The notes below the pieces were generated by a model that saw nothing but the letters and a program-made list of their open reading frames with translations, searched no databases and had not been told where the DNA came from. Made by a program: the position numbers and the translations under genes. Positions 49,093-61,776 of a stretch of DNA of 64,000 bases are shown piece by piece (within the stretch, counting starts at the first letter, position 1; each line of letters opens with the position of its first letter). The stretch is from contig CAYUIE010000003.1 of NCBI GenBank assembly GCA_964444665.1, positions 234,990 through 298,989 of the forward strand, read 5' to 3'. The stretch is from an uncultured Pirellulales bacterium (GTDB lineage: Bacteria; Planctomycetota; Phycisphaerae; Sedimentisphaerales; CAYZTY01).

Positions 49093-49119
49093 ATTGTCGG
49101 CGGGTTGAAAAGTAAATAC

Positions 49120-49472
49120 GGGGGCGAATGGCTTCGACCGGACAGGTTGACGGATAAGTGGCATGTCCAGGACGCCGGTTGGCCTGGCTAATCATCCGGC
49201 ACAAAAATTAATTGGCAACTACCAGTTGCGTATGGCTGCGTAACTAACGCGGCCCGCCCTGTCGAGTCTTTCCTGCGGGCACGGCAAGGGCGCCAAACAG
49301 CAGGATAGCCCAGCCGGTTTTTTCGGGCCGGTGGGGTGAAAATTATCCGAAATAGCCGACTCAGGGGCCTGTCGTTCGGCATCTGATAAGGCGAAACTCA
49401 ATCGACCGACTAAACATGTAGAGGCTTATCCTGAAGTGTCACGGGACGGGGGTTCGAATCCCCCCGCCTCCA
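49120..49472 (+). ncRNA. ssrA: tmRNA; tag (A)GNYQLRMAA*
   Basis: 5' GGGGGCGAATGGCTTCGAC; tag ORF 49214-49243; 3' GGGGGTTCGAATCCCCCCGCCTCCA T-arm/acceptor. Confidence 0.96.
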
Positions 49473-49498
49473 TTCTCTTCGTTTCTCCAATTTTTTAC

Positions 49499-49527
49499 TT
49501 GACAAAGACTTACATCACACCTATTCT
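49499..49527 (+). promoter_or_regulatory. Sigma70-type promoter of the island integrase
   Basis: TTGACA-17 nt-TATTCT immediately after the ssrA 3' end. Confidence 0.65.
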
Positions 49528-49565
49528 GCCATGAAATGCTTATGGGAGCATAAAGGGAGTATTTT

Positions 49566-50657
49566 ATGGCATTTTTATTTGCACGGAAGCATCAGCGTGG
49601 CAAGACGTGGTATGTGGGTTACTACGTTGATGGCAAGCTCGTCCGCAAGAAGATTGGCCGAAGTAAAACACTGGCTGAGAAGGCCCGGGGGGACATTGAA
49701 GCCAGAATCGAGAGAGGTGAAGCAGGTCTTCTAAATAGAGACTACCCTATCCGTAGATTCTTCCAGGAGTATCTTGGACGGACAAAAACCAGGCACTCCG
49801 CATCCTACCACGACAGAAACAGAAGAGTCATAAAACAGTTCGAAAGATTTCTTGATGCCGAAAGACCATATCTGACCAGACTATCTCAACTAAAGCATGC
49901 CGTTATTGAAGCATACCAGCGGTTCAGATTGAATGAGACCGTCCCAAATAGCGGCAAACCCGTCAAAAAGAGAACCGTGAATATCGAGGTCAGCAGTCTT
50001 AAAACTTTCTTGAACAAAGCAGTAAAGTGGGATATGCTCTCCAGTAATCCCCTCGACAACGTGGAATACCTGAAAGAAAACGACAGCAAGAACATTCGAG
50101 CACTGACAGAAGAAGAAGTGCAAAAACTGCTTGAAGAAGCTAACGGCTGGTTCAGACCAGTACTTTTAACGGCACTTTACTCGGGCCTGAGAGAAGGGGA
50201 ATTAATAAATCTGGAGTGGGACGATGTTGACCTCAAACGTGGCGTGATACGAATACGCCGTAAGGTTGGCTGGGTACCCAAATCAAGCGGGAGAAGTATT
50301 CGTGAAAGGGACGTGGCCATCCCGAAGCAACTCGTGGAATTCCTGGAAAAGTACAAGAAACATCCGAGCTATGACGATGGCAAAGTGTTTCATAACAAGT
50401 TCGGTGATGAACTGAAGCCCGGGTTACGGAAGATCCTAATGAGGCTCACAAGAAGATGCGGCTTCCCCGAGGTTACGCAGTTCCATGCTCTAAGGCATAC
50501 ATACGCGACGCATCTGATTAAAGCGAGCAAGGATTTGCAGGTTGCAATGGACCAGTTAGGGCATGCTGATATTCGCACGACAATGCGGTACTCTGACATG
50601 ACCCTGGAGAGAAAGCGTAAAGCTGCAGAGAGGCTAAAATATGAAACAAGCAAGTGA
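49566..50657 (+). CDS. Tyrosine integrase (bacterial, arm-binding N-terminus)
   Basis: WYVGYYVDGKLVRK N-terminus; catalytic SGLREGE (R), FHALRHTYA (HxxR), LGHAD (H), TMRY (Y). Confidence 0.95.
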   Translation: MAFLFARKHQRGKTWYVGYYVDGKLVRKKIGRSKTLAEKARGDIEARIERGEAGLLNRDYPIRRFFQEYLGRTKTRHSASYHDRNRRVIKQFERFLDAERPYLTRLSQLKHAVIEAYQRFRLNETVPNSGKPVKKRTVNIEVSSLKTFLNKAVKWDMLSSNPLDNVEYLKENDSKNIRALTEEEVQKLLEEANGWFRPVLLTALYSGLREGELINLEWDDVDLKRGVIRIRRKVGWVPKSSGRSIRERDVAIPKQLVEFLEKYKKHPSYDDGKVFHNKFGDELKPGLRKILMRLTRRCGFPEVTQFHALRHTYATHLIKASKDLQVAMDQLGHADIRTTMRYSDMTLERKRKAAERLKYETSK

Positions 50658-50739
50658 CAACTGTAAAAAGATATTAATACTGTGGCCATATATCAAAATA
50701 GATTTGGTGGGCTCTTAGCGAGTATTCGGAGATGATTAC

Positions 50740-52416
50740 ATGGCTAAAAACAAGTTAAACGATATTCCAAAAAAAGGTACACTTGAAATCAAAGTTGACA
50801 AGGCGGTGGTTAAGCACCTGAGCATCGGCCTATACCGCAACTATGCACTCGCCATAAAAGAATTGGTCTCTAACGCGTACGATGCAGGAGCAACAGAGGT
50901 GAAGATAAAACTGGATTTGAAGAGGAAGAGAATCGTAATTCGAGACAATGGGCGAGGCATGGACTACGATGACTTAGATAACGAATATCTCTGCATCGGC
51001 CTGCATAAAGCACCCTCCAGAAAGCCGGACGAATTGGGTCGAATGCGGATTGGCACTTTTGGGATTGGCTTTCTTGCACCTCTTCCATATTGCAAGCGAA
51101 TGACCGTAATTACTAAGAAACGGGGAAGCGACAGTGTCTTTCAGGCAACAATTAAGGCTACGAACTTCTTTAGCAAGGGCAATTGGGACATCAAAGACGA
51201 GAAAGTAGAATACGAAATCACAGACAGTGACCTTCCCCGAAAATCTGGTGAGACAATCGTGATTTTGGAGGAGATAGAGCCACAAATAGCGGAGGATTTA
51301 AATAGAAGCCGGAAGAAGGCAAAGGCCAAGATCGATCAGCTTGGTGGGTTCGATAAATTCAAATGGACTCTGTCTCAATACTGCCCGATCGAGTTTCCCC
51401 CTGAATGGAAGGAGTTGAGGAAATTCTTTGCTTATCCCGAAAGGATTCCGATGCGGCTGTGGCTTGATGGAAAAGAGCTTTTTAGAAATGTGCCTGAGGC
51501 GTGTGAGATTCTCGAAAAAGACGAGAAGGTCTTTGGGAATATTCACGTCAAATATGTGATATTGACACCTTACCACACTGTCAAGCCTGAGGAAGCAAGG
51601 GGTCTCCAGCTACGTCTCAGAGATGTGGCAATTGGATTCCCTCAGGATTTTGACGTCACAAAACTGGGAAGAGTCTTGGGAAAATTGAATCAGTTATGCG
51701 GAGAAGTCCACATTCTCAAAGGCCTAGACAATGCTCTAATGATTACAAGGGATACTTTTAACTATACCGAGGAAGTTTCCGAGCTGTACAAGTTCTTTAG
51801 AGAGAAGCTTACGAAGTGGAACAACTGGCTTGCAGACGAGGCAGATGCGACAAAGAAAGTGTATGAAGCCCTGCCCCCAGACAAAGCAGATGCAATAGCG
51901 GAGACTCTAAGGGAGGCAGATGTTGTTAAATTTCCAAAGGAGAGATTCCGCCTGCCTAAGTTTCCTATATCGAGCAGGCGCAAAGGTGAAATCTCCGCAC
52001 CTTCACAGCAACTAAAGGAGGCGCTCAAATCAAGACGAGGATTTTCTGTAGTATCTAGTAAGGCCAAGAGGACTAAAGACCAGCCTGCCATTGAGGTTGA
52101 TAAGAAGCGGAAATCCGTAACCGTTTACGACGAGCACCCTTCTTTTCTTGATTCTATTGAGGTAGAAAATAAGAAAATACTTGTGAGTTACGACAAATGG
52201 GAGGTCACTGGAACGCCCTATTCGATCTGCAAATACGACCGGAGACATAACAAGGCGGTGTTCAATACGGACCATCCACTCTTTAAAGCAAAAGTCAGTG
52301 ACAAAGTAGTGAAGCAGCTATCCTTGGGTATCTTGATATTGTTGGAAGGAACCAAGGAAAAAGAGCGAATTGTATCCAGATTCAATCGCATGCTTGAGGA
52401 TGTGTTCCAGGGGTAG
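50740..52416 (+). CDS. GHKL (Hsp90/MutL/MORC-like) ATPase
   Basis: KELVSNAYDA (N box), RDNGRGM (G1), RIGTFGIG (G2), followed by S5-like region. Confidence 0.88.
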   Translation: MAKNKLNDIPKKGTLEIKVDKAVVKHLSIGLYRNYALAIKELVSNAYDAGATEVKIKLDLKRKRIVIRDNGRGMDYDDLDNEYLCIGLHKAPSRKPDELGRMRIGTFGIGFLAPLPYCKRMTVITKKRGSDSVFQATIKATNFFSKGNWDIKDEKVEYEITDSDLPRKSGETIVILEEIEPQIAEDLNRSRKKAKAKIDQLGGFDKFKWTLSQYCPIEFPPEWKELRKFFAYPERIPMRLWLDGKELFRNVPEACEILEKDEKVFGNIHVKYVILTPYHTVKPEEARGLQLRLRDVAIGFPQDFDVTKLGRVLGKLNQLCGEVHILKGLDNALMITRDTFNYTEEVSELYKFFREKLTKWNNWLADEADATKKVYEALPPDKADAIAETLREADVVKFPKERFRLPKFPISSRRKGEISAPSQQLKEALKSRRGFSVVSSKAKRTKDQPAIEVDKKRKSVTVYDEHPSFLDSIEVENKKILVSYDKWEVTGTPYSICKYDRRHNKAVFNTDHPLFKAKVSDKVVKQLSLGILILLEGTKEKERIVSRFNRMLEDVFQG

Positions 52417-52422
52417 GGCTGA

Positions 52423-53151
52423 ATGGGTAACAGCAGTAGTTTGAAAGACGAGATGATCGAGAAATTATGGCTCCCAAAAGCTAAGGAGGCGTGGAGTATC
52501 ATTTGTCCCAGGCGGAAGAAACATGCTCGGATGTGTATGCTTACACTGTCGGATGGCCTTGACTTGGGCGAGGTGTCTAAGTTGGAGGAGGCGAATTTGA
52601 TTACGCGGGAAGACTCTGTGGGCTGGGTCTCTTCAATGAATAAGCGATGGAGGGTCGAAGCAGAAAATATTGGACTGGTCATTGACGGGCATGTATATGA
52701 TTCGTCATTTCTCACGCCATCTTGCCCACTGGTAAGCCATTTCCCTTTTGACATCCTCAATCTGGATTTTGGCTCCCAAGACGCCGACATGAATGAGGGA
52801 CGGACGGAAACCGAACTCATGGCGTTTGAAAAATTCATCGATCTTCAGGGACAAAATGGCAAACGCAAATTTCTCGTCATCTTCACTGTTCCAATCAACT
52901 CCTGCGATCTGGATTGCGCAAGGGTCGCGAGGGGATCTGACGCAACGAGAGTCAATGGCTGGGGCGGACTTAGATTGGACGAATACTCCGAGCATATTGC
53001 AGAACAAAGCGAAAAGACGGACTTCATCCAAGCTATTGCAGACAGTGTTATCCGGAAATATGGCTATAGTTGTAGTAACGGTTTAGTACCGCTATTATGT
53101 TCCGACTCTAACAGGATTCTGTTCTCCGTCGCAGGAGTCCTGGTGAGGTAG
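52423..53151 (+). CDS. Hypothetical protein, possibly degenerate SAM-methyltransferase-like fold
   Basis: Tightly packed in operon; MLTLSD and FPFDILNLDF segments; fold guess only. Confidence 0.55.
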   Translation: MGNSSSLKDEMIEKLWLPKAKEAWSIICPRRKKHARMCMLTLSDGLDLGEVSKLEEANLITREDSVGWVSSMNKRWRVEAENIGLVIDGHVYDSSFLTPSCPLVSHFPFDILNLDFGSQDADMNEGRTETELMAFEKFIDLQGQNGKRKFLVIFTVPINSCDLDCARVARGSDATRVNGWGGLRLDEYSEHIAEQSEKTDFIQAIADSVIRKYGYSCSNGLVPLLCSDSNRILFSVAGVLVR

Positions 53152-53154
53152 AAA

Positions 53155-53934
53155 ATGGCTAAGTTTAATATTGACAAATTGCCACCACTGGCGAGAAGCA
53201 TGTTTGAAAGCCAGTCGAAGTGGGCAGACAAAAACTGGAAAGATACCTTGAGATTGCGTGCGCGTGAAATCAATACTCTCTTGGATAACATAAGCATTTT
53301 CGATCTCTGGAAGAAAGTGCTTGGAGACGAATACGGTAAAATTGGGCAAGATTTGTTGCCTGAAATTTATATGGACGCCTATGTGTCAGTACATTTCGCT
53401 TGTATGGGTCTGTACAAGCAAAGCCATGTATGTTTGAGATCCGAACTAGAGAATGCTCTGCGTCTGGTCTACTTTGCAGTGCACCCTGTTGAGTATGGCT
53501 GGCGGCGGTCTGGGAAGGATTTCTTCAAAAAAAAGGATGTGTGGGCAGACGATTATCGCTATTTTCGGCAACTTGATGAGGTCCAGAAGTTTCAGCAGAT
53601 TTGTAAAAAGGATGGAAACAATGTTATTGTCTTTGACGCTGTAAGAAATCTTTATAGTAAACTATCTCAATATGTTCATACAGGGCCTACTACTTTTATA
53701 ACTACACCTAATCGCTTTGCTCCCAAATACAAAAAACCAGAATTCGGAAAATGGCTAAATGCCTTTAAGGAGACGCAGAAGTGTATAAATCTAATTCTTG
53801 TCTTGGGATTCACCGAAGATTTCAAGAAGTTGACCCTGCCTAAGAAGAAGGGAATCTTGAAAAAAACCGGTGACAAAAAAGTCAAGAAAGGTCTACGTAA
53901 ATCCATACCAGTAAAATTCGTGGGGGCTATCTGA
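53155..53934 (+). CDS. HEPN-like (DUF5677-type) helical protein
   Basis: LRSELE and LYSKLSQYVH motifs with helical character. Confidence 0.55.
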   Translation: MAKFNIDKLPPLARSMFESQSKWADKNWKDTLRLRAREINTLLDNISIFDLWKKVLGDEYGKIGQDLLPEIYMDAYVSVHFACMGLYKQSHVCLRSELENALRLVYFAVHPVEYGWRRSGKDFFKKKDVWADDYRYFRQLDEVQKFQQICKKDGNNVIVFDAVRNLYSKLSQYVHTGPTTFITTPNRFAPKYKKPEFGKWLNAFKETQKCINLILVLGFTEDFKKLTLPKKKGILKKTGDKKVKKGLRKSIPVKFVGAI

Positions 53935-53935
53935 T

Positions 53936-55009
53936 ATGATAATAAAGAAGGAAGATATCTTTAAGAAAGCTCCTTCGACAAGATATCAAGGTAGCAAGAG
54001 AAGGATTCTGCCTTGGCTTTACGATAATCTCAAAGACTTGGACTTCCACACAGTTTTTGATGGTTTTGGAGGAACTGGAAGTGTTAGTTATTTATTTAAG
54101 TTAATGGGTAAAAAAGTTACTTTCAATGATATATTAGCTTCGAATTATTTGGCTGGTGTAGCTTTGATTGAAAATGAGTCTGTCAAATTAGACCGAGATG
54201 ATGTTGATTTTATTTTACATGAAAATGGTTTTAATTATCCTAGTTTTATCGAGGACAATTTCAGGGGGACCTATTATTTGTCTCGGGAGAACAGATGGCT
54301 AGACGTTGTATCTCTTAACATCCGAATGCTTTCTCAAAAGTATAAAGGTGATATCTTAAGGAAAAAGCAGGCTTTAGCCAATCATATTTTATTTCAAGCT
54401 TGTTTATGTAAACGCCCCTTTAATCTTTTTCACAGAAAAAACTTATATTTGAGAACAGCACGAGTAAAAAGGAGTTTTGGAAATAAAAAAACATGGAACA
54501 CAAGTTTCCAAAGGTTGTTTCTAAAATTTAATGAAGAAATCTCTCAAAAGATTTTTTCTACTAAATTGAAGCATACCGCTCTTTGCGAAGATATTATGAA
54601 AGTCAGAAGGAAAAAGTTTGATCTTGTGTACTTAGATCCGCCGTATGCTAGGAAAAATGAAAGACATCCCAAAGATTATCATTCTTTATATCATTTTTTT
54701 GAAGGAATGCTTGATTATGATAATTGGGCGGAAAGAATTAATTGGAACACTAGAAATCATTGTTTAGTTCAGGAAAAGACAGGATGGGATAAGGATTCAA
54801 TCGAGGAGAATTTTGATAAATTATTTAGGAAATTTCAAAATTCGATTATAGTTGTTTCCTACGGTAGTCCAGGTGTCCCTTCCATTGATACAATCAGAAA
54901 GCTCCTGAATAAATACAAATCTGTGGTCTATATTAAACAAAGGCAGTATTGTTATAAATTGAACCGTAAAAATGGTGGTTTATACGAGGTTTTATTGATA
55001 GGCAAATAA
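53936..55009 (+). CDS. DNA adenine methyltransferase (Dam/D12 class)
   Basis: RYQGSK, FDGFGGTGSVS (motif I), FND, YLDPPY (motif IV). Confidence 0.92.
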   Translation: MIIKKEDIFKKAPSTRYQGSKRRILPWLYDNLKDLDFHTVFDGFGGTGSVSYLFKLMGKKVTFNDILASNYLAGVALIENESVKLDRDDVDFILHENGFNYPSFIEDNFRGTYYLSRENRWLDVVSLNIRMLSQKYKGDILRKKQALANHILFQACLCKRPFNLFHRKNLYLRTARVKRSFGNKKTWNTSFQRLFLKFNEEISQKIFSTKLKHTALCEDIMKVRRKKFDLVYLDPPYARKNERHPKDYHSLYHFFEGMLDYDNWAERINWNTRNHCLVQEKTGWDKDSIEENFDKLFRKFQNSIIVVSYGSPGVPSIDTIRKLLNKYKSVVYIKQRQYCYKLNRKNGGLYEVLLIGK

Positions 55010-55093
55010 CTTTTCTGAAGCCATACAAGAGGTATCTTTCATTTTCTTCAACAGCGAAATAAGTGTCACTTTTATATTCCAAGCAAAGAAGAT

Positions 55094-55891
55094 TCACCAC
55101 TTCTCGCACATCCCCTGATATCCACAGTTTCCGCATAGATAGCCTTCGTTTGGATAATAGAAGCCGCCCCGTATTGCGTTTTCGACCTGTCCCGCAAGGC
55201 GGGAGAAACGATCGATGTCCGCCTGTGTCCTTTTCCCGTATAGCTGCTGGATCTTCGGCTGTTTGTTTCTTACCATTACGTCGAGACGGACACCTTTTTC
55301 TTCCTGGCCGTAGAGCGTGCGGAAGGCCAGCGAATAGGCAGTCAACTGAACATCCTTTTCTGCCGTGTTTTCCGGGAAGCTCCGTTTAGTCGTCTTGTGG
55401 TCGATGATGCACTGCTTATCGTCGATAAGGTCGATATATCCTTTAAGGGGAAGCTTGGTTCCAACCGTGTCAATGAGGAATTCCCGCTCGACTTCGACCG
55501 GCTGGACGCTTGGAGCAACCTGATCGAAGTATGCCTTCAGAAGATTCACGCCGTCATCTTTGAGCTTCCCAGGATTCTCTCCGTCTTTGAACTCCGTTTC
55601 CCCGACTTCACGTTCCCAGTACTCGCTGAAGAGTTCAGTAATATGAGAAACAATAATATCATGGCCGGTCTTTATTTTCTGCCTGTAGTTATCTTTAAGG
55701 GTATGATGAATCGTCCGGCCAAGAGTCAGGTCTCCTGTCGGCGGAGTCTTAATATCACATATGTATCGGAAAAAGTATGAAAGAGGGCAACGAATGTACA
55801 TCTTAAGCTGGGAGACGGACAGGTGGGGCCTTATCGTCGAGACGGTTCCCACCTGCCCATCTGAAGAGAATTCACTGTCGGCCTCTGTCAT
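55094..55891 (-). CDS. PD-(D/E)XK nuclease, RecB/AddB/Cas4-like with four-Cys cluster
   Basis: LSVSQLKMYIRCP, GRTIH, VERE, GYIDL, IIDHKT, QLTAY, C-terminal CGNCGYQGMC; start at MTEAD ATG 55891 after GGGGG. Confidence 0.88.
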   Translation of the reverse strand: MTEADSEFSSDGQVGTVSTIRPHLSVSQLKMYIRCPLSYFFRYICDIKTPPTGDLTLGRTIHHTLKDNYRQKIKTGHDIIVSHITELFSEYWEREVGETEFKDGENPGKLKDDGVNLLKAYFDQVAPSVQPVEVEREFLIDTVGTKLPLKGYIDLIDDKQCIIDHKTTKRSFPENTAEKDVQLTAYSLAFRTLYGQEEKGVRLDVMVRNKQPKIQQLYGKRTQADIDRFSRLAGQVENAIRGGFYYPNEGYLCGNCGYQGMCEKW

Positions 55892-56309
55892 TGTTCCCCC
55901 CGCCATTGTTATCCTGTGCCGGAGTCTCCGGTTCACCCTCGAAGACGTAGCGTTCAAAGAATCTCGCCGTCTCGATGGTCAGATCCTTCTTGGCATCAGG
56001 GTCAAGCTGAACGGGTGCAAGAATCTCGCTGGCGGATTTCAGGCACGACATCCTTGCGATCTGCCTGTCCTTGCCGTTTGGCCGGTATTGCGGCAGTTCG
56101 TTGCCGTTACCATTCACCGGCTCTATATCCGTCATGTTCTTGAAATTTCCGCTCTGCCTGAAGTCGTAGTCGATGGTTACGCCTTCCTGGAGCGTGTCAA
56201 AGTACTTGTCGTCCCAGACGCTGTATCTCTCTCCCCCGACCTGGACGGTCAGGTATTTCTGTCCCTTTCTGCTCTCGTTCTCCCAGACCTGCTCAATAGC
56301 CCCTCTCAT
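55872..56309 (-). CDS. Hypothetical, putative OB-fold ssDNA-binding protein of mobile elements
   Basis: Beta-rich N-terminus (KYLTVQVGGERYSVWD..FKNMTDI), RQIARMSCLKSA helix, acidic/Gly tail; GGAGGTG SD before ATG 56309. Confidence 0.55.
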   Translation of the reverse strand: MRGAIEQVWENESRKGQKYLTVQVGGERYSVWDDKYFDTLQEGVTIDYDFRQSGNFKNMTDIEPVNGNGNELPQYRPNGKDRQIARMSCLKSASEILAPVQLDPDAKKDLTIETARFFERYVFEGEPETPAQDNNGGGNNDRGRQ

Positions 56310-56328
56310 ATTACACCTCCACACTTCT

Positions 56329-56592
56329 TCAAGGCAGCTCCTCAACGGTTGTCCCGTCTTCAAGAATTGATTTCGGGCAGAAGCGGCGACACTGCTTCAC
56401 CTCCTTGGAAGACGGAATCTTCTTCAACACGGCACACCAGATGCCTCTGCCGTTTTCAATTCCGCAGATGCAACCTTCACACTTTGCCGGGTATGGATCC
56501 TCCGATTTGTAGCTGCCTGCCATTACAGGAGGTTTCTCAGGTCGGCATTTTAGGGTATCGGAGAAAGGGTATGCGATTCGTGCTGTTGCCAT
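56329..56592 (-). CDS. Small Cys-rich hypothetical protein
   Basis: CEGCIC..WC..CRRFC; co-oriented between the recombinase and the SSB-like gene. Confidence 0.5.
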   Translation of the reverse strand: MATARIAYPFSDTLKCRPEKPPVMAGSYKSEDPYPAKCEGCICGIENGRGIWCAVLKKIPSSKEVKQCRRFCPKSILEDGTTVEELP

Positions 56593-56608
56593 GTAAGGAG
56601 AATGATGA

Positions 56609-57808
56609 TTAATCGTCGGTTTCAGGGTTTGTGAGTTCCCCGATCTTCCGTGCGAGTATGTCCCGGAAGTCCTGGTCCTGAATTAGCCTGTCCATAATTT
56701 GGTCGGCTTTGTTCCGCTCAAGGTTCTTCTTGATGATTTCACTAGCCGTTTTCTGATCTAACACTGTGCCACAACGGCTGCAAAATTTGTTCGTTGATGC
56801 GTTTTCTACCTTGCACCGTGGACAAGCTTTTGGCCTTAACTTGCCCTCCGGTCTCCGGCTCGTGTCAGTAGCAATACCGTAGGTCTTTAGCAGAGCGTTG
56901 TCAACGTCACGCCCCGAAAGGTGAACGTATATGGATGGCATGTTTGAGCCCTGGGTCCATCCGAAGACTTCATTCATCTGTGCTTCGGTGAGATGGTTGG
57001 CCAGGTGTGTCGCCCTGCTGTGGCGAAATGAATGCGGGTTGATTCTCTTCTTAATTCCAGCTCGTTTCGCTGCTGCATCCAGTATGTCGCGTATCCTCTT
57101 ATAACTCAGACGGGACGCTCTGTAGTCTTTTGAAACCCACAGGTATTCCTGTGGTTGTGACTTCTTAGGGTGAATGTTAAGCCAGTCGGTCATATATGGA
57201 GCTGATGTGATTATTAGTAATCTTCTTGTTCCTGTCTTTCCTGATACGATGATTCGAAAACCATGAATGTGTGGAAGAACATGCTTTATTCTCATCGATG
57301 CAATTTCCCCTATTCTGCACCCGGTCTCGTAAAGAATCGATACGAGGGCCCTGTCCCTGGGATCATGGCATGCCTCAATTAGCCTGGAAATGTCCTCTTC
57401 CGTAAGAAGTTCATCAGGAAGCCTGTTGTTGCAGTTACGGCGGCTGAGCTTAATCCACGCCGTTTCCTGCGGATCTTCATTAACTCCCCGGAGCCAGCGA
57501 TAGAATTTCTTTATCGTAAGCTTGAGGTCCTGTTTTGTCCATTCGGAATAACCGGACTGCTGAATGGTTCTTACGAGCGTCTCAATGTCAGCTTTAGTGG
57601 CATCAGCGAAGTCCTTTTTAAAGAGAGAAGCGAGGCACTTGAGATGGCCGACATATTTCTCCACGCGTGGAATGCTCAGTCCCTCGGAGAAACAGTAATC
57701 GGAAAAATCCAGAATGGCACGTTTGTTTTTCGGAGAGAAGTTAGACTTCTTGATTAGCTCTATTCTTCTCTCCAGCTTACGTTCATAGTTATGGAAGCTA
57801 TCATCCAT
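56609..57808 (-). CDS. Tyrosine recombinase of archaeal type with C-terminal zinc ribbon
   Basis: YSEWTKQDLKLTIKKFYRWL, ETGCRIGE (R), GKTG (K), PHSFRHSRAT (HxxR), FGW, YVHLSGRDVD (Y), CPRC..N..KFCSRCG. Confidence 0.92.
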   Translation of the reverse strand: MDDSFHNYERKLERRIELIKKSNFSPKNKRAILDFSDYCFSEGLSIPRVEKYVGHLKCLASLFKKDFADATKADIETLVRTIQQSGYSEWTKQDLKLTIKKFYRWLRGVNEDPQETAWIKLSRRNCNNRLPDELLTEEDISRLIEACHDPRDRALVSILYETGCRIGEIASMRIKHVLPHIHGFRIIVSGKTGTRRLLIITSAPYMTDWLNIHPKKSQPQEYLWVSKDYRASRLSYKRIRDILDAAAKRAGIKKRINPHSFRHSRATHLANHLTEAQMNEVFGWTQGSNMPSIYVHLSGRDVDNALLKTYGIATDTSRRPEGKLRPKACPRCKVENASTNKFCSRCGTVLDQKTASEIIKKNLERNKADQIMDRLIQDQDFRDILARKIGELTNPETDD

Positions 57809-58153
57809 GAAGATTCACCCACGCCAGGCTTTTAAGACCTGACGTGGGCACCGTGCTTTTCACCCCACGCCGAGGATGGGTGTTCAACGAAAAGTACAAC
57901 GCCCACAGAATTCAGACCTTAAAGCCTATGAGAAATAGTTAACTGAAGAGATATTTAAGCCTTGCGCTCGTAAGAATATTGGTTAGAAATGCAGGATAGA
58001 ACAAACTTTACCCATTCCGGAGTTCTGATCGCCCGGTCATTCTCACTTTCCATGCTGAAATATAGGTGAATGCCTTTTTTCATCCTTCTTTCCACATGTT
58101 GCGCACCATGCCAGTAAAGCGCAAATGGGTGCACCGAAATCGCGTCAAATTCC

Positions 58154-58702
58154 CTATTCGGCTACCATCGTTGCCGATAGCTTCTTTCGCACCCATAACG
58201 AGAACCACATCGAGAAGACACATAAGGCAAATGCCGGAGGGAGTACGACGAGTGTGTTAGCTACAGGGTTATCACATAGGAGGAAGCCCTGTACAGGCTC
58301 AGGAGAGCGTGCTCTACTGACAAGATACTCACCACAGAATGCGTTGCTTACTGGACTGTAAGGATTTGAATAGAAAATCCGTATGACACTGTAGGAAGGG
58401 CTCTGTGAATGGAAGAGATTCAGTCCTACCGGATTGATTACCAATGTCACGATGGCAACGGAGGTAACAATGATTAGTAATGCCGCGACAAGGTAATCCT
58501 TGAATGTGGCACGAAGCAGAAAGGCAACCCCAAATGGAATGGCAATGCAGTTTATGGCAGGAAGGATCATGCTGAACTGAAGGTTTATAGCTCCGAGAAA
58601 GTCCAGAAGAAGGACGAACCACAGCAAACCCGCAAGCAATGAGAATACCCACCAGAGTAGAAAGACTTTGCCCACAGTTCGGACGTTATTGATATCCTTC
58701 AT
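58154..58702 (-). CDS. Hypothetical membrane protein (about 4 TM)
   Basis: Hydrophobic segments; divergent from ORF 58758. Confidence 0.6.
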   Translation of the reverse strand: MKDINNVRTVGKVFLLWWVFSLLAGLLWFVLLLDFLGAINLQFSMILPAINCIAIPFGVAFLLRATFKDYLVAALLIIVTSVAIVTLVINPVGLNLFHSQSPSYSVIRIFYSNPYSPVSNAFCGEYLVSRARSPEPVQGFLLCDNPVANTLVVLPPAFALCVFSMWFSLWVRKKLSATMVAE

Positions 58703-58726
58703 GTTTTAGTATATAATATTGACGAA

Positions 58727-58741
58727 TTATTAAGCTATCGG
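58727..58741 (-). promoter_or_regulatory. Archaeal BRE+TATA-like motif (possibly bidirectional TATA)
   Basis: Minus strand CCGATAG-CTTAATAA starting 39 nt before ATG 58702; plus strand GACGAA-TTATTAAG with TATA at -31..-24 of ATG 58758. Confidence 0.5.
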
Positions 58742-58757
58742 CGAAAGGGACAGGAAG

Positions 58758-60281
58758 ATGAAGACTGGTTTGTTTCTGGCGCTATGCGTGTTTCTTACAC
58801 TCTTATCTATCACATCAGCTTCCTCTGGCAAGGGATTCCCTCCAAAATGGATCGAAGGAGATGCATATGTGACTCAGGGAGAAGTGATTGACGGAAAACC
58901 AGTAAGTGGGAGAGGTGTCAAGGTTTCTATAACACGTTCTAAGGGAGCCGAATCCAGTGGACCATATCACTACACTGTAAGAATTCAGCCAGGCGATCCA
59001 TGGGAACATGGTACAGCAAGCGGAAGGACAGTATGGATTGAGGGACATGGTATCAGCCAGATCATCATCTCTCTGCCGGTCGATACGGCGGAAATTACAA
59101 ATACCAGAGTCTTGATAATCGGAAAGACCAGAGAACAAACAATGAGGGAGCTACAGGCAATTATGACAGAGGGGTTCAAGGGGTATGCCGAGGAACAAAT
59201 AAGGCAAGCAGCGGACAAGGCCAAGGATATTGTGTTTGGAATTCCAACCTCCTACATTGAGTTGGAAGAACCGTTTGAACTAAGTCCTCGAGATGGTCTC
59301 ATTATACTGAAGTGTGATTTCGAAGGAGCCAATGTCAGTCAGCGTTTTGACAAAATTGAAGAAGTTGTCGTTTCCTTCGATCTAACCTATAAGAAACCAA
59401 GCAAGCATTATATAGTAATAACTCCAGACATCAGAGCTACAGGCAACCTAGTTGATACATCATTACCTCTGAGGGGGAGCATAGGTGGTTACTACCTCAT
59501 TGAATACAGACAGGAGTTCATTCTAACACATAGTGGTGACTTTGAGAGTCGTCAAAACTCGGAAGGTCACCCGTATTTTCCGCTGACTGTGGGCAACAAA
59601 TGGACATACGATACGCGTGTGCAAATGGTGGTTCCGGGGTTCATGGAGAACCCCCCTAAAGAGGGTTCAACTACCTTTGCGGTCGCAGATAAGAAAAGGG
59701 TCAGCGACAAAGACTGCGTAGTAATTAGAGAGGGTATGAACGAAAGCTACTACTATATTGAAGACGGGTGTGTGATGTTAGCTGGTTCGCGCGGATGGGC
59801 CAGCATTGAGGAGTTTCTGTCACAGCAGGGTCTAAAAATCAAGTTCCCCACGAAGTATTTGGAGAATTCACTAACAACCGGTAAGTCATGGATAAGGGAA
59901 CATATTATTGGCTCTCATCCTGATGCTAGTTTAGTATCACGAGTTTTGTGTGTCGAAACTGTTACTGTCCCTGCAGGAACATTCCAAGACGCCATCAAGA
60001 TTAAAAATCGTCTTTCTGTGGGTAGTATGGGAGAGGTAGTTGTTATTGAATGGTTGGTAAAAGGTGTTGGAAGAGTAAAGGGCTCTATGTTAAGCCGCTT
60101 GGGGGGAAATAATAGTGGTGCTATGCCCGTGCAAGTTAAAATGGAATACGAACTTAGCTCATATGATATTGCTATGGGCGATCACAAAAGGAATAGTGAA
60201 GAGAAAGATAAACAGCAACACAAGGAAAAAAAGATTGGATGCAGTTTCACCGATGAACTTTCACCCGGCGGAGTAGGTTAG
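58758..60281 (+). CDS. Secreted hypothetical protein, C-terminal DUF3108/TapB-like beta domain
   Basis: Signal peptide MKTGLFLALCVFLTLLSITSA; YFPLTVGNKWTY ... ETVTVPAGTFQDAIKI pattern. Confidence 0.65.
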   Translation: MKTGLFLALCVFLTLLSITSASSGKGFPPKWIEGDAYVTQGEVIDGKPVSGRGVKVSITRSKGAESSGPYHYTVRIQPGDPWEHGTASGRTVWIEGHGISQIIISLPVDTAEITNTRVLIIGKTREQTMRELQAIMTEGFKGYAEEQIRQAADKAKDIVFGIPTSYIELEEPFELSPRDGLIILKCDFEGANVSQRFDKIEEVVVSFDLTYKKPSKHYIVITPDIRATGNLVDTSLPLRGSIGGYYLIEYRQEFILTHSGDFESRQNSEGHPYFPLTVGNKWTYDTRVQMVVPGFMENPPKEGSTTFAVADKKRVSDKDCVVIREGMNESYYYIEDGCVMLAGSRGWASIEEFLSQQGLKIKFPTKYLENSLTTGKSWIREHIIGSHPDASLVSRVLCVETVTVPAGTFQDAIKIKNRLSVGSMGEVVVIEWLVKGVGRVKGSMLSRLGGNNSGAMPVQVKMEYELSSYDIAMGDHKRNSEEKDKQQHKEKKIGCSFTDELSPGGVG

Positions 60282-60332
60282 GCGTTTGTCGCTAGTTGGA
60301 TCGAAAGCCACAGGTCTTGGGTACGAAGTGGA

Positions 60333-60701
60333 TTGTGTGGCACAAAAGATGAAAAGCCTTGTTGGCTTCTGGGATATCTCGAAAGAGGTCCTAAACTTGA
60401 GTTCCATCTTACTTTTTGCGGTAGCGGGGGGTCTCCAAAAGTCCATCTACAACCAAGAATATGGTCTATAACGTTTGAGGGAAAGAGATCGTACTGGACA
60501 GAAGTTTGGGATAGCCGTTCGAGACGACGCTATACAGTCGTTGTGGATGTTGATTTCTGTGGTCGTGACAGATTCGAAGTTAGAAGTGGGGAATACTGGG
60601 AGACCTTCAGGGTTGTTGGCGACAAGAATTTGGAAGTAGTAACTGAGAGCAAGACTCACATTAAGGCTCGATGGCATCTGCATATCGAACGGATGTATTA
60701 A
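60333..60701 (+). CDS. Possible hypothetical protein or degraded gene
   Basis: Fills the gap between convergent genes; beta-rich C-terminal half; no family recognised. Confidence 0.3.
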   Translation: MCGTKDEKPCWLLGYLERGPKLEFHLTFCGSGGSPKVHLQPRIWSITFEGKRSYWTEVWDSRSRRRYTVVVDVDFCGRDRFEVRSGEYWETFRVVGDKNLEVVTESKTHIKARWHLHIERMY

Positions 60702-60735
60702 CTTGGGACTTAGCATTTCAGAGACGTTGATAAGG

Positions 60736-61776
60736 TTAGCTTGAAACATTGAATTCTCTCACCTTTCCTTGTATCGCAGCCCGTTTCGCTCGTATTAAAC
60801 CTGTCTCAACAAGTTTGTTGCAGTAGTCTGAATAGGTGCGGATGGCTATAGGCTTAATTGCCTTCGATGTGCATGTCCTGAGATACAGCCGCCATAGGTC
60901 ACCCGACAGAATTCCCGGATTTCCTGCGATTAGCTCAAACAACAGCTTATGGTGGTCGGTCAGCTTGTGAAGGATGAACGCCTTTTTCAGGGTCTTCGAG
61001 TTGTTCCACGCCTGCTTAACATGGGAAGTCATAATTGGACCCTGGCCGTCTCTTTCAGCGATATAAACGGCATTTTTGAGGGTCTGTATGGCCACCCTCG
61101 CATCACCGGTTGCAAGCTGTGCTATGAGACGCAAAAGACCCTCGTCGCATGTTCCTGGTGTAAGAGCATATTGCGCCCGATGATTGAGAATGCTAAACAA
61201 CTCATCGCAAGAGTAATCCTTAAAGAATACCTGAGCAGGATTGAGCCTGGATTTCACTCTTTCCTCAAGGCCGAAATAAACGTGCTCGGAATTGCAAGCA
61301 CAGATTAGACCAACTGTCGGAAGGTCCGAAAGGTTATATAGAATTGAATGCCTTTCCTTCGGAGGTGGCTGATTTATTTCATCGAGAATGATGACCAAAC
61401 GCTCCCTGGAAATATGCCTTTTGAGTCTCTCCAGTTTGAATGAGGTGCTGAGCTTATCGGCGCCCAGCATACGCAACTCAATCGCAATACGCTCGAGCAC
61501 CGAGAAGAAGGTCGGATTCTCCCAGCAGTTAACGTATATGCCTTTGATCCCTGCTTCCTGATGAAGCTTTTTTAAGATAAGTCGGGCTATGACGGTCTTG
61601 CCAGTGCCGGGTTTTCCGTGAAGCCAAGTGTGTATGGGCTTTCTGCCTTCGGTAATCGGCCGAAGGCACAGTGCAATCTCCTTCAAGTGAGATTCACGCT
61701 TGAGAGTTTCCTCTGGAATATGGCTTTCGCTGAAGAAATCTGGGTCCAGCAGAATTGGTTGTCCTTCAGGAGGCAT
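60736..61776 (-). CDS. cdc6: Orc1/Cdc6-family replication initiator (archaeal type)
   Basis: FSESHIPE..LKRESH.KEIA.CL.P N-terminus; Walker A GKPGTGKT; YVNC; Walker B IILDEI; Arg finger RVKSRL; F..YS.DEL..IL..RA; sensor II GDARVAI; C-terminal winged helix. Confidence 0.9.
   Translation of the reverse strand: MPPEGQPILLDPDFFSESHIPEETLKRESHLKEIALCLRPITEGRKPIHTWLHGKPGTGKTVIARLILKKLHQEAGIKGIYVNCWENPTFFSVLERIAIELRMLGADKLSTSFKLERLKRHISRERLVIILDEINQPPPKERHSILYNLSDLPTVGLICACNSEHVYFGLEERVKSRLNPAQVFFKDYSCDELFSILNHRAQYALTPGTCDEGLLRLIAQLATGDARVAIQTLKNAVYIAERDGQGPIMTSHVKQAWNNSKTLKKAFILHKLTDHHKLLFELIAGNPGILSGDLWRLYLRTCTSKAIKPIAIRTYSDYCNKLVETGLIRAKRAAIQGKVREFNVSS

Follow-up and report, generated by a model that had tools for sequence, protein, structure and literature searches.

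A mobile four-gene cassette of a GHKL ATPase, two unannotated proteins and an adenine methylase as a candidate defence system of bacteria and archaea

GHKL ATPases encoded in restriction-modification (R-M) operons were predicted in 2008 (Iyer, Abhiman & Aravind, PMC2292703), and an S5-domain motif, GhXhhpXXRhl, unites the prokaryotic and eukaryotic MORC proteins (PMC2292703). Hma, which consists of a helicase, an m5C methylase and an ATPase, is a named candidate system of a related composition (PMC8565338). Here we describe a cassette of four genes, A-B-C-D, in a 64,000-nt stretch of DNA, hereafter the window, from an uncultured Pirellulales bacterium (assembly GCA_964444665.1, contig CAYUIE010000003.1, forward-strand positions 234,990 to 298,989). 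By a modest balance of probability, and going by sequence, we read A-B-C-D as a self-contained cassette for defence of the R-M kind, linked to methylation and moved by horizontal transfer, with a MutL/MORC-like GHKL ATPase at its centre. This kind of system is already known; the cassette would be a so far undescribed variant of GHKL-ATPase-based defence. A preliminary description of the locus had reported four co-oriented genes, with gaps of 1-6 nt, directly behind an integrase at ssrA. The open reading frame (ORF) listing gives just this layout: the four ORFs are intact and co-oriented, the gaps measure 6 nt (A-B), 3 nt (B-C) and 1 nt (C-D), and the components of the unit are the following.

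50699-50739, + strand: leader of A, 41 nt, conserved, containing a GGAG ribosome-binding site; left end of the transferred unit
50740-52416, + strand: gene A, 558 aa, predicted GHKL ATPase (ORF listing)
52423-53151, + strand: gene B, 242 aa, predicted methyltransferase fold (ORF listing)
53155-53934, + strand: gene C, 259 aa, predicted all-helical, DUF5677-like protein (ORF listing)
53936-55009, + strand: gene D, 357 aa, predicted D12 N6-adenine methylase (ORF listing); right end of the transferred unit at its stop codon

How does this locus compare with the systems already described? With the MORC and paraMORC R-M operons (PMC2292703) and with Hma (PMC8565338) the cassette shares a GHKL ATPase with intact ATP motifs and a middle domain, encoded next to a methylase, as well as a sporadic horizontal spread in bacteria and archaea and a defence-island context. 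It differs from all of these in that no superfamily II (SF-II) helicase belongs to the unit (one is adjacent in 2 of 15 loci), no restriction-endonuclease (RE)-fold, HNH or Vsr nuclease is recognisable, and the methylase is predicted to target adenine (D12 class) and not cytosine. In addition, the partners of the ATPase are two unannotated families, B and C, and the MORC S5 motif is absent. The BbrUII/HgiDII enzymes (NF050001) are homologous to the N-terminal 175 residues of A, which form the GHKL domain, but the remaining 380 residues are unmatched and A contains no nuclease half. An operon composed of an N6_N4 methylase, a GHKL protein and MjaV, found beside the cassette in one locus (L005), has the GHKL and middle domains of A and the same logic of a methylase, a GHKL protein and one or more small partners; the cassette, however, has B and C in place of MjaV, and the two have different methylase classes and different C-terminal domains. 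MANTIS (Gao_RL) and BREX-type systems are likewise multi-gene assemblies in which an ATPase and a co-factor, together with an adenine methylase, separate self from non-self. Their ATPase, however, is of the AAA+ class where that of the cassette is a GHKL ATPase, their methylase is PglX-like and their effector is a helicase-nuclease; none of their PADLOC models matches A, B or C. PrrC with EcoprrI and the paraMORC-Ymh (HEPN) fusions (PMC3710099) couple an NTPase to a helical effector with His and Arg residues in an R-M setting, but C is encoded as a protein of its own and could not be shown to be a HEPN domain. Finally, C and its relatives give consistent weak matches to DUF5677 (PF18928), a family of no known function, although C of the window itself lies below the threshold. 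PADLOC-DB v2.0.0, Pfam and NCBIfam hold no model for the cassette, in agreement with the preliminary description, which had not recognised the combination as a named system. The signatures of Mza, Hma, Gao_RL/MANTIS, MADS and BREX were not found in it, and no description of it was found in the literature on GHKL/paraMORC proteins with methylases and defence, on DUF5677, on Hma or on MANTIS.

The A-B-C-D arrangement is conserved far beyond chance, and some 35 genomes of bacteria and archaea contain it in unaltered form. More than 250 full-length homologues of A were found at 50-94% identity, and the order A-B-C-D recurs in three long contigs whose flanks are unrelated. A genome scan, with one genome taken per species, gave 18 loci, 16 of which have enough flanking sequence. 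A-B-C are contiguous and D is adjacent in all 16, with D directly after C in 14, upstream and divergent in one, and downstream and convergent in one. In a metagenome scan B follows A in 36 of the 36 loci where A is complete and a further gene has room, and D is present in 23 of the 23 with room, a few of the metagenome loci being one sequence seen twice. The four genes of the preliminary description thus co-occur wherever their neighbourhood could be checked. Over 17 loci the genes are tightly packed, with gaps of 2-8 nt between A and B, -4 to 15 nt between B and C and -1 to 57 nt between C and D. The bacterial loci of the genome scan belong to Planctomycetota, Pseudomonadota, Desulfobacteraceae, Gemmatimonadota, Omnitrophica, Dehalococcoidia, Chloroflexia and Cloacimonadales, and the archaeal loci to Aenigmatarchaeota, Thorarchaeota, Woesearchaeota, Methanoperedens and Methanophagales.

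The limits of the unit can be read from close relatives. Two Pirellulales loci (L008 and L061) are 82% identical to the window at the nucleotide level over 50699-55011 only, a span that runs from 41 nt before the start codon of A to 2 nt past the stop codon of D, and their flanks are unrelated. Because the homology is confined to this span, we regard A-B-C-D as a mobile unit. A natural deletion variant of the island of the window (L105:312-4282, compared with window 49105-56587) has about 370 bp in place of window 51218-55096 and keeps the flanking genes; the lost block runs from codon 160 of A through the end of D. In other loci a Mutator-family transposase is inserted in C (L022:2343-3422), a DDE_Tnp_1 transposase is inserted in A (L024:492-2429) or a DDE transposase lies directly behind A (L122:2104-3126), and truncated A genes are present in L099 and L100. 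The exceptions to the complete cassette are decayed copies. In L100 a 394-aa protein (L100:3447-4631) matches residues 2-375 of A only, without the C-terminal domain; B, C and D are absent, and the flanking ORFs of 456, 464 and 276 aa have no Pfam match. Either this copy has decayed or its architecture is a different one. Among the viral contigs of IMG/VR there was no full-length A and one distant C, and since no full-length A was obtained from them we consider that the cassette is not phage-borne.

The company that the cassette keeps is that of defence genes. A survey of 133 flanking ORFs of 15 loci returned N6_N4 methylases (7 loci), ResIII, GmrSD, BsuBI/PstI and EcoEI restriction subunits and integrases as recurrent families; the MjaV restriction gene of L005 is also among the flanks, and HepT/MNT flanks the cassette in L003. 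Elsewhere, R-M, GmrSD and toxin-antitoxin genes abound in the flanks. Two neighbours were considered as a fifth component and rejected: the upstream N6_N4 methylase, which is present in 7 of 15 loci at a varying position and orientation, and a SWI2/SNF2-HNH helicase, present in 2 of 15. In these two loci the helicase, which carries HNH repeats, is encoded directly upstream of A (L001:4124-7895 and L014:5279-7954). An N6_N4 methylase lies between helicase and A in L001. The helicase in front of A is reminiscent of the MORC operons with linked helicases in Iyer et al.

The first and last genes of the cassette encode recognisable enzymes, and here too the preliminary description, which had read a GHKL ATPase and an adenine methylase in the locus, was right: A matches PF13589 (E 1.5e-22, 80.5 bits against a cut-off of 25) and D matches PF02086 (67.2 bits against a cut-off of 22). 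A consists of the GHKL domain (residues ~1-190), a middle domain (~200-375) and a family-specific C-terminal domain (~455-558). Bergerat-fold motifs I-IV (ExxxN, DxGxG, GxxGxG and a conserved Thr) are all present, and none of E41, N45, D69, G71, G73, G105, G108, G110 and T125 varies among 27 sequences, with E41 and N45 carried by the segment ELVSN. The N-terminal 175 aa resemble the GHKL part of the BbrUII/HgiDII restriction enzymes, of the PADLOC REase_II models and of MzaB, and the rest of A is unmatched. Against NF050001 the score is 95.6 bits, compared with a cut-off of 550, and the match covers profile positions 2-175 of 659 only; against PADLOC REase_II (PDLC03485/03419) the E-value is 5.8e-14, and all PADLOC matches of A (REase_II, MzaB and TmtA) pass through the GHKL N-terminus. 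This is the only resemblance to a restriction enzyme in the four genes, in which no nuclease domain was found, as the preliminary description had also concluded when it saw no recognisable restriction endonuclease. The GHKL domain of A matches MutL models as well. With hhalign, residues 19-373 of A align to the GHKL protein of the N6_N4 methylase, GHKL and MjaV operon mentioned above at 97% probability. Because of this match we interpret A as a probable R-M-associated, paraMORC-like GHKL ATPase, to use the term of Iyer et al. (2008, PMC2292703), with a putative S5-like middle domain assigned by homology. The segment of A at the place of the MORC S5 motif reads G288-L-Q-L-R-L-R-D-V-A-I-G, and its hydrophobic and Arg positions do not fit. 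A PDB profile search with residues 185-385 returned no match, and the C-terminal domain (~100 residues, YDxW...SIC...FNxxHPxF) has no Pfam or PDB match beyond chance PDB matches at E >= 0.23.

D appears to be an active D12-class N6-adenine DNA methyltransferase. Its match to PADLOC MTase_II PDLC03261 has an E-value of 6.6e-49, and its invariant residues include D42, F44 and G46 (FxGxG) and D234, P235 and P236 (DPPY). It also matches PADLOC mad2, weakly. It is not a Dam orthologue by TIGR00571, to which it gives a partial match of 32.3 bits against 114.85, and a PDB sequence/profile search with D returned nothing. D behaves as an exchangeable part of the cassette. Between L007, a metagenome-assembled genome (MAG) of the Phycisphaerae, and L008 the nucleotide identity is 96-98% for A, B and C but only 68% for D (L007:7983-9053; L008:3638-4711). 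In amino acid identity the window differs from these two most in D (70-80%), with B at ~80% and A and C at ~90%. Pairwise identities covary among A, B and C with Spearman coefficients of 0.69-0.86, and between D and A-C with coefficients of 0.50-0.60. The G+C content of the window is ~0.45-0.48 in A and B, 0.41-0.48 over A-C and 0.33 in D. Because D diverges while A-C are near-identical in L007 and L008, and because D of the window is diverged and G+C-poor, we conclude that D has been replaced by recombination within an otherwise constant cassette. Full-length relatives of D, at 29-42% identity, are found on viral contigs of IMG/VR (L123-L131); phages may therefore carry this methylase subfamily, possibly for self-protection.

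The second gene had been left as unknown in the preliminary description. In terms of families this still stands, as B has no match in Pfam, PADLOC (v2.0.0, in which C has none either) or PHROG and a PDB sequence/profile search with it returned nothing; in terms of structure it no longer does. The AlphaFold model of B (predicted local distance difference test, pLDDT, 90; predicted template modelling score, pTM, 0.90) has a seven-stranded class-I methyltransferase (Rossmann) fold, its strands and helices following the usual order, and all 38 of the 38 PDB matches obtained with Foldseek at E <= 0.001 are methyltransferases (probability 0.9-1.0, template modelling (TM) score 0.25-0.46). The top matches have E-values of 4e-6 to 1e-3 and TM scores of 0.40-0.46, and the nearest structural neighbours are the tRNA and rRNA methyltransferases METTL6, Trm1, NpmA and Trm5a. 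The glycine-rich S-adenosylmethionine (SAM) loop was not found, there being no conserved glycine after strand 39-42, and strand 2 ends in W68, with no acidic residue. After strand 4, where amino-methylases have (D/N/S)PP(Y/F/W), B has an invariant N113-L-D115-F116-x-S118-Q119. On the predicted structure, B is a class-I methyltransferase fold with non-canonical motifs. No relation between B and D was detected by hhalign. NF047698, an uncharacterised NCBIfam family (PP_RS20740), is weakly matched by 13 of 16 members of the B family. PF28273 is listed in the precomputed annotation of two divergent B homologues (P0135 and P0137).

For C the label HEPN-like, given in the preliminary description, has to be withdrawn. 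HEPN families of Pfam are not among the matches of 31 C members at E <= 1, hhalign of C against the HEPN protein HepT gave a probability of 0.2%, and in Foldseek the HEPN folds 4nqf and 2q00 appeared only at E 3-6 with probabilities of 0.28-0.38. The AlphaFold model is all-helical (pLDDT 87, pTM 0.86) and has no significant Foldseek match in the PDB or BFVD; a PDB sequence/profile search gave one chance match (E 3.4). An R103-x6-H110 arrangement, which may be compared with the HEPN motif Rx4-6H, occurs in the clade of the cassette, but conservation of R103 does not extend to the wider superfamily, and the invariant R95 and H175 are 80 residues apart on different helices of the model. C of the window scores 23.6 bits against DUF5677, with a gathering cut-off of 27.1, and 24 of the 31 members match this family below the threshold; a distant relative, P0209, exceeds it with 31.5 bits. 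A profile search over 1.8 billion representatives led to 753 related clusters, whose distant members match DUF5677 as well. C thus seems to be a distant relative of DUF5677, of a family that is different from HEPN or not demonstrably HEPN. R95 and H175 do not vary among 131 full-length representatives, in which E99, S171, Y167, E70, D74, H110 and E113 are nearly invariant as well. Since these residues are conserved over the superfamily, we take the 'YVH' of C as a real site, probably catalytic, at its histidine, H175. This histidine, E41/N45 of A and D234/P235/P236 of D belong to the motifs singled out in the preliminary description, and all of these residues proved invariant.

Relatives of C also occur outside the cassette. 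In three independent loci (L030-33 and L149) distant C-like proteins form the last member of a conserved triad that begins with a ParA-like ATPase and a small ORF, and further ones stand alone; no homologues of A, B or D are present in the distant C-like loci examined. It is mainly because C-like proteins recur behind nucleotide-using enzymes that C is our candidate for the effector. In Enterococcus, the active defences reported did not include a DUF5677 gene that had been tested (PMC12632615). In L149 (L149:1208-7156) an unknown protein of 484 aa comes after the ParA/CbiA-like ATPase, the small ORF and the C-like protein. The group is enclosed by an N6_N4 methylase on one side and a PvuII endonuclease gene on the other, with a resolvase adjoining; this module looks like a candidate system inside an R-M pair. 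On a single 3.2-kb contig (L147:206-3059) the C-like protein comes after an ORF of 248 aa and a QueC-family protein of 454 aa. The order resembles QatB-QatC-QatD, with the C-like protein in the slot of QatD (TatD nuclease).

What would such a cassette do? In the mechanism that we propose, D would methylate host adenines and may also supply sequence specificity, the task of Mod in Type III systems, and this second role would explain why D swaps safely. A would dimerise and act as an ATP-dependent clamp or switch that licenses the effector in the way that MutL licenses MutH. B may be a non-catalytic or atypical adaptor or reader with a methyltransferase fold and a degenerate pocket. C would be the effector, a nuclease or RNase acting through an R95/E99/S171/H175 site and released against unmethylated incoming DNA. 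The roles suggested in the preliminary description, with a methylase that marks self, an ATPase that senses and B or C as effector, are likewise a proposal. A bolder form of this proposal, which we hold to be possible but clearly the less probable, is a new restriction-like system without a classical nuclease. C would then represent a new effector superfamily whose Arg/Glu/Ser/His site is invariant and which works behind three unrelated kinds of nucleotide-using partner (GHKL ATPases, ParA-like ATPases and QueC-like enzymes), B would be a pseudo-methyltransferase that reads adenine methylation, and the exchangeable D would give specificity as Mod does in Type III.

Several observations weigh against a methylation-linked defence cassette. 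A, B and C show no recognisable nuclease fold or motif, and the chemistry of C is guessed solely from conserved residues. The weaker covariation of D with its partners could mean that its link to A-B-C is looser than in a true R-M system. The plasmids of PLSDB gave only matches to the GHKL N-terminus for A and none for C, so that the cassette is absent from them and this collection offers no annotated cultured example. The sequence of the window is present in DNA runs of salt-marsh metagenomes only and in no RNA runs.

Could the cassette kill or arrest the cell and leave phage DNA uncut? In an abortive infection module, A-B-C would be a latent toxin in which C is an RNase and B an RNA-binding subunit, coupled to a methylase like PrrC-EcoprrI or paraMORC-Ymh. 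We think this rather unlikely. The nearest folds of B, METTL6, Trm1, NpmA and Trm5a, are enzymes of tRNA and rRNA, as this explanation would have it, but TM scores of 0.4-0.46 do not reveal a substrate. The invariant Arg/His pair of C is typical of metal-independent RNases, and the GHKL-HEPN fusions of R-M neighbourhoods have been suggested to be analogues of PrrC (PMC3710099); C, however, has neither a HEPN profile nor a significant fold match. The D allele is interchangeable, which also fits, but a pure abortive infection module would have no need of D, and D is present in every complete locus.

Alternatively, the cassette may only modify DNA, a proposition that strikes us as doubtful. A, B and C would load, activate or regulate D, the part that MtsA and MtsB play for MtsC in MANTIS, or B would add a second modification; there would be no restriction arm, and the purpose would be epigenetic regulation or protection from other restriction systems. 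MANTIS provides a documented case of a methylase whose loading depends on an ATPase (bioRxiv 10.64898/2026.09.23.753747), the cassette contains no recognisable nuclease, and B, besides its methyltransferase fold, has a pocket-like motif that is conserved after strand 4. Methylases of the D12 class, however, normally act alone, and the swap of D between near-identical A-B-C sets fits a dedicated loader poorly. Moreover, C-like proteins are also found with ParA-like or QueC-like partners and no adjacent methylase.

Many R-M systems stabilise themselves, or the island that carries them, through post-segregational killing, and a selfish addiction module of this type, of little antiviral benefit, would account for the wide horizontal spread as a precise unit and for losses that are seen only as whole-cassette deletion or insertion sequence (IS) disruption. 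Such behaviour is also compatible with defence, and the neighbourhoods are defence islands, not plasmid-maintenance regions; we regard addiction as improbable. Least of all do we expect a methyl-directed, repair-like role in genome maintenance, with A as MutL analogue, D as Dam analogue and B and C as novel partners: the GHKL domain of A does match MutL models and D belongs to the Dam superfamily, but the cassette encodes no MutS-like or MutH-like protein, D lies below the Dam equivalog cut-off (32 against 115 bits), and the sporadic distribution, the islands and the horizontal transfer all speak against it.

In the window the presumed defence cassette lies in an island at ssrA, the tmRNA gene, whose features are given here together with those of a second small module that directly follows the cassette (55094-57808, - strand).

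49120-49472/49475, + strand: tmRNA (ssrA), found with ARAGORN and Rfam RF00023 (170.7 bits); integration site of the island, outside the cassette
49566-50657, + strand: tyrosine integrase, PF00589 (E 1e-28); island context, outside the cassette
55094-55957, - strand: PD-(D/E)XK Cas4-like nuclease; second module
within 55094-57808, - strand: 87-aa ORF and overlapping 163-aa ORF; second module
56609-57808, - strand: XerA-like tyrosine integrase with a C-terminal zinc ribbon; second module

The integrase next to ssrA is syntenic with those of L007 and L105, at 75-79% nucleotide identity. As no direct repeat of the tmRNA 3' end, which would mark an attachment (att) site of the ssrA island, was detected downstream, synteny with these two loci was used for the limits of the island. 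L007, the closest relative, has the same ssrA island, and its downstream genes are common with those of the window up to position 58023. Between integrase and A it carries an extra Type II R-M pair (L007:1935-4476), a 534-aa NPPY methylase with a 314-aa BsuBI/PstI-type endonuclease, at a position where the window has only ~100 bp. As this pair differs between the two, the cargo of the ssrA island of the window is variable, and the cargo position that the preliminary description had assigned to the four genes is that of a real, conserved operon in such an island. The second module is kept together with the cassette in L007; L105, which is without the cassette, keeps its nuclease and two small ORFs and not its integrase. 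The module is probably a separate integrated element. Its Cas4-like PD-(D/E)XK gene was considered as the missing nuclease of the cassette and rejected, as it accompanies the cassette only in close relatives of the window and remains in L105 after the deletion of the cassette. Further downstream, window 58023-60741, with a hydrophobic ORF of 182 aa (- strand) and an ORF of 507 aa whose N-terminus resembles a signal peptide, is missing from L007, and this difference is due either to an insertion in the lineage of the window or to a deletion in L007.

What are the implications of an active A-B-C-D cassette? If it works as we propose, it would represent a methylation-based immunity that is widespread in bacteria and archaea and whose restriction arm lacks a known nuclease. 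It would provide the first functional handle on the B family, with its degenerate cofactor site, and on the DUF5677-like superfamily, which comprises ~750 clusters at 50% identity. The modular exchange of the methylase is a natural experiment on how modification and restriction arms share specificity. An active cassette would also be a compact prokaryotic model of how MutL/MORC-type GHKL ATPases couple the methylation status of DNA to an effector, a question that concerns the eukaryotic MORCs too.

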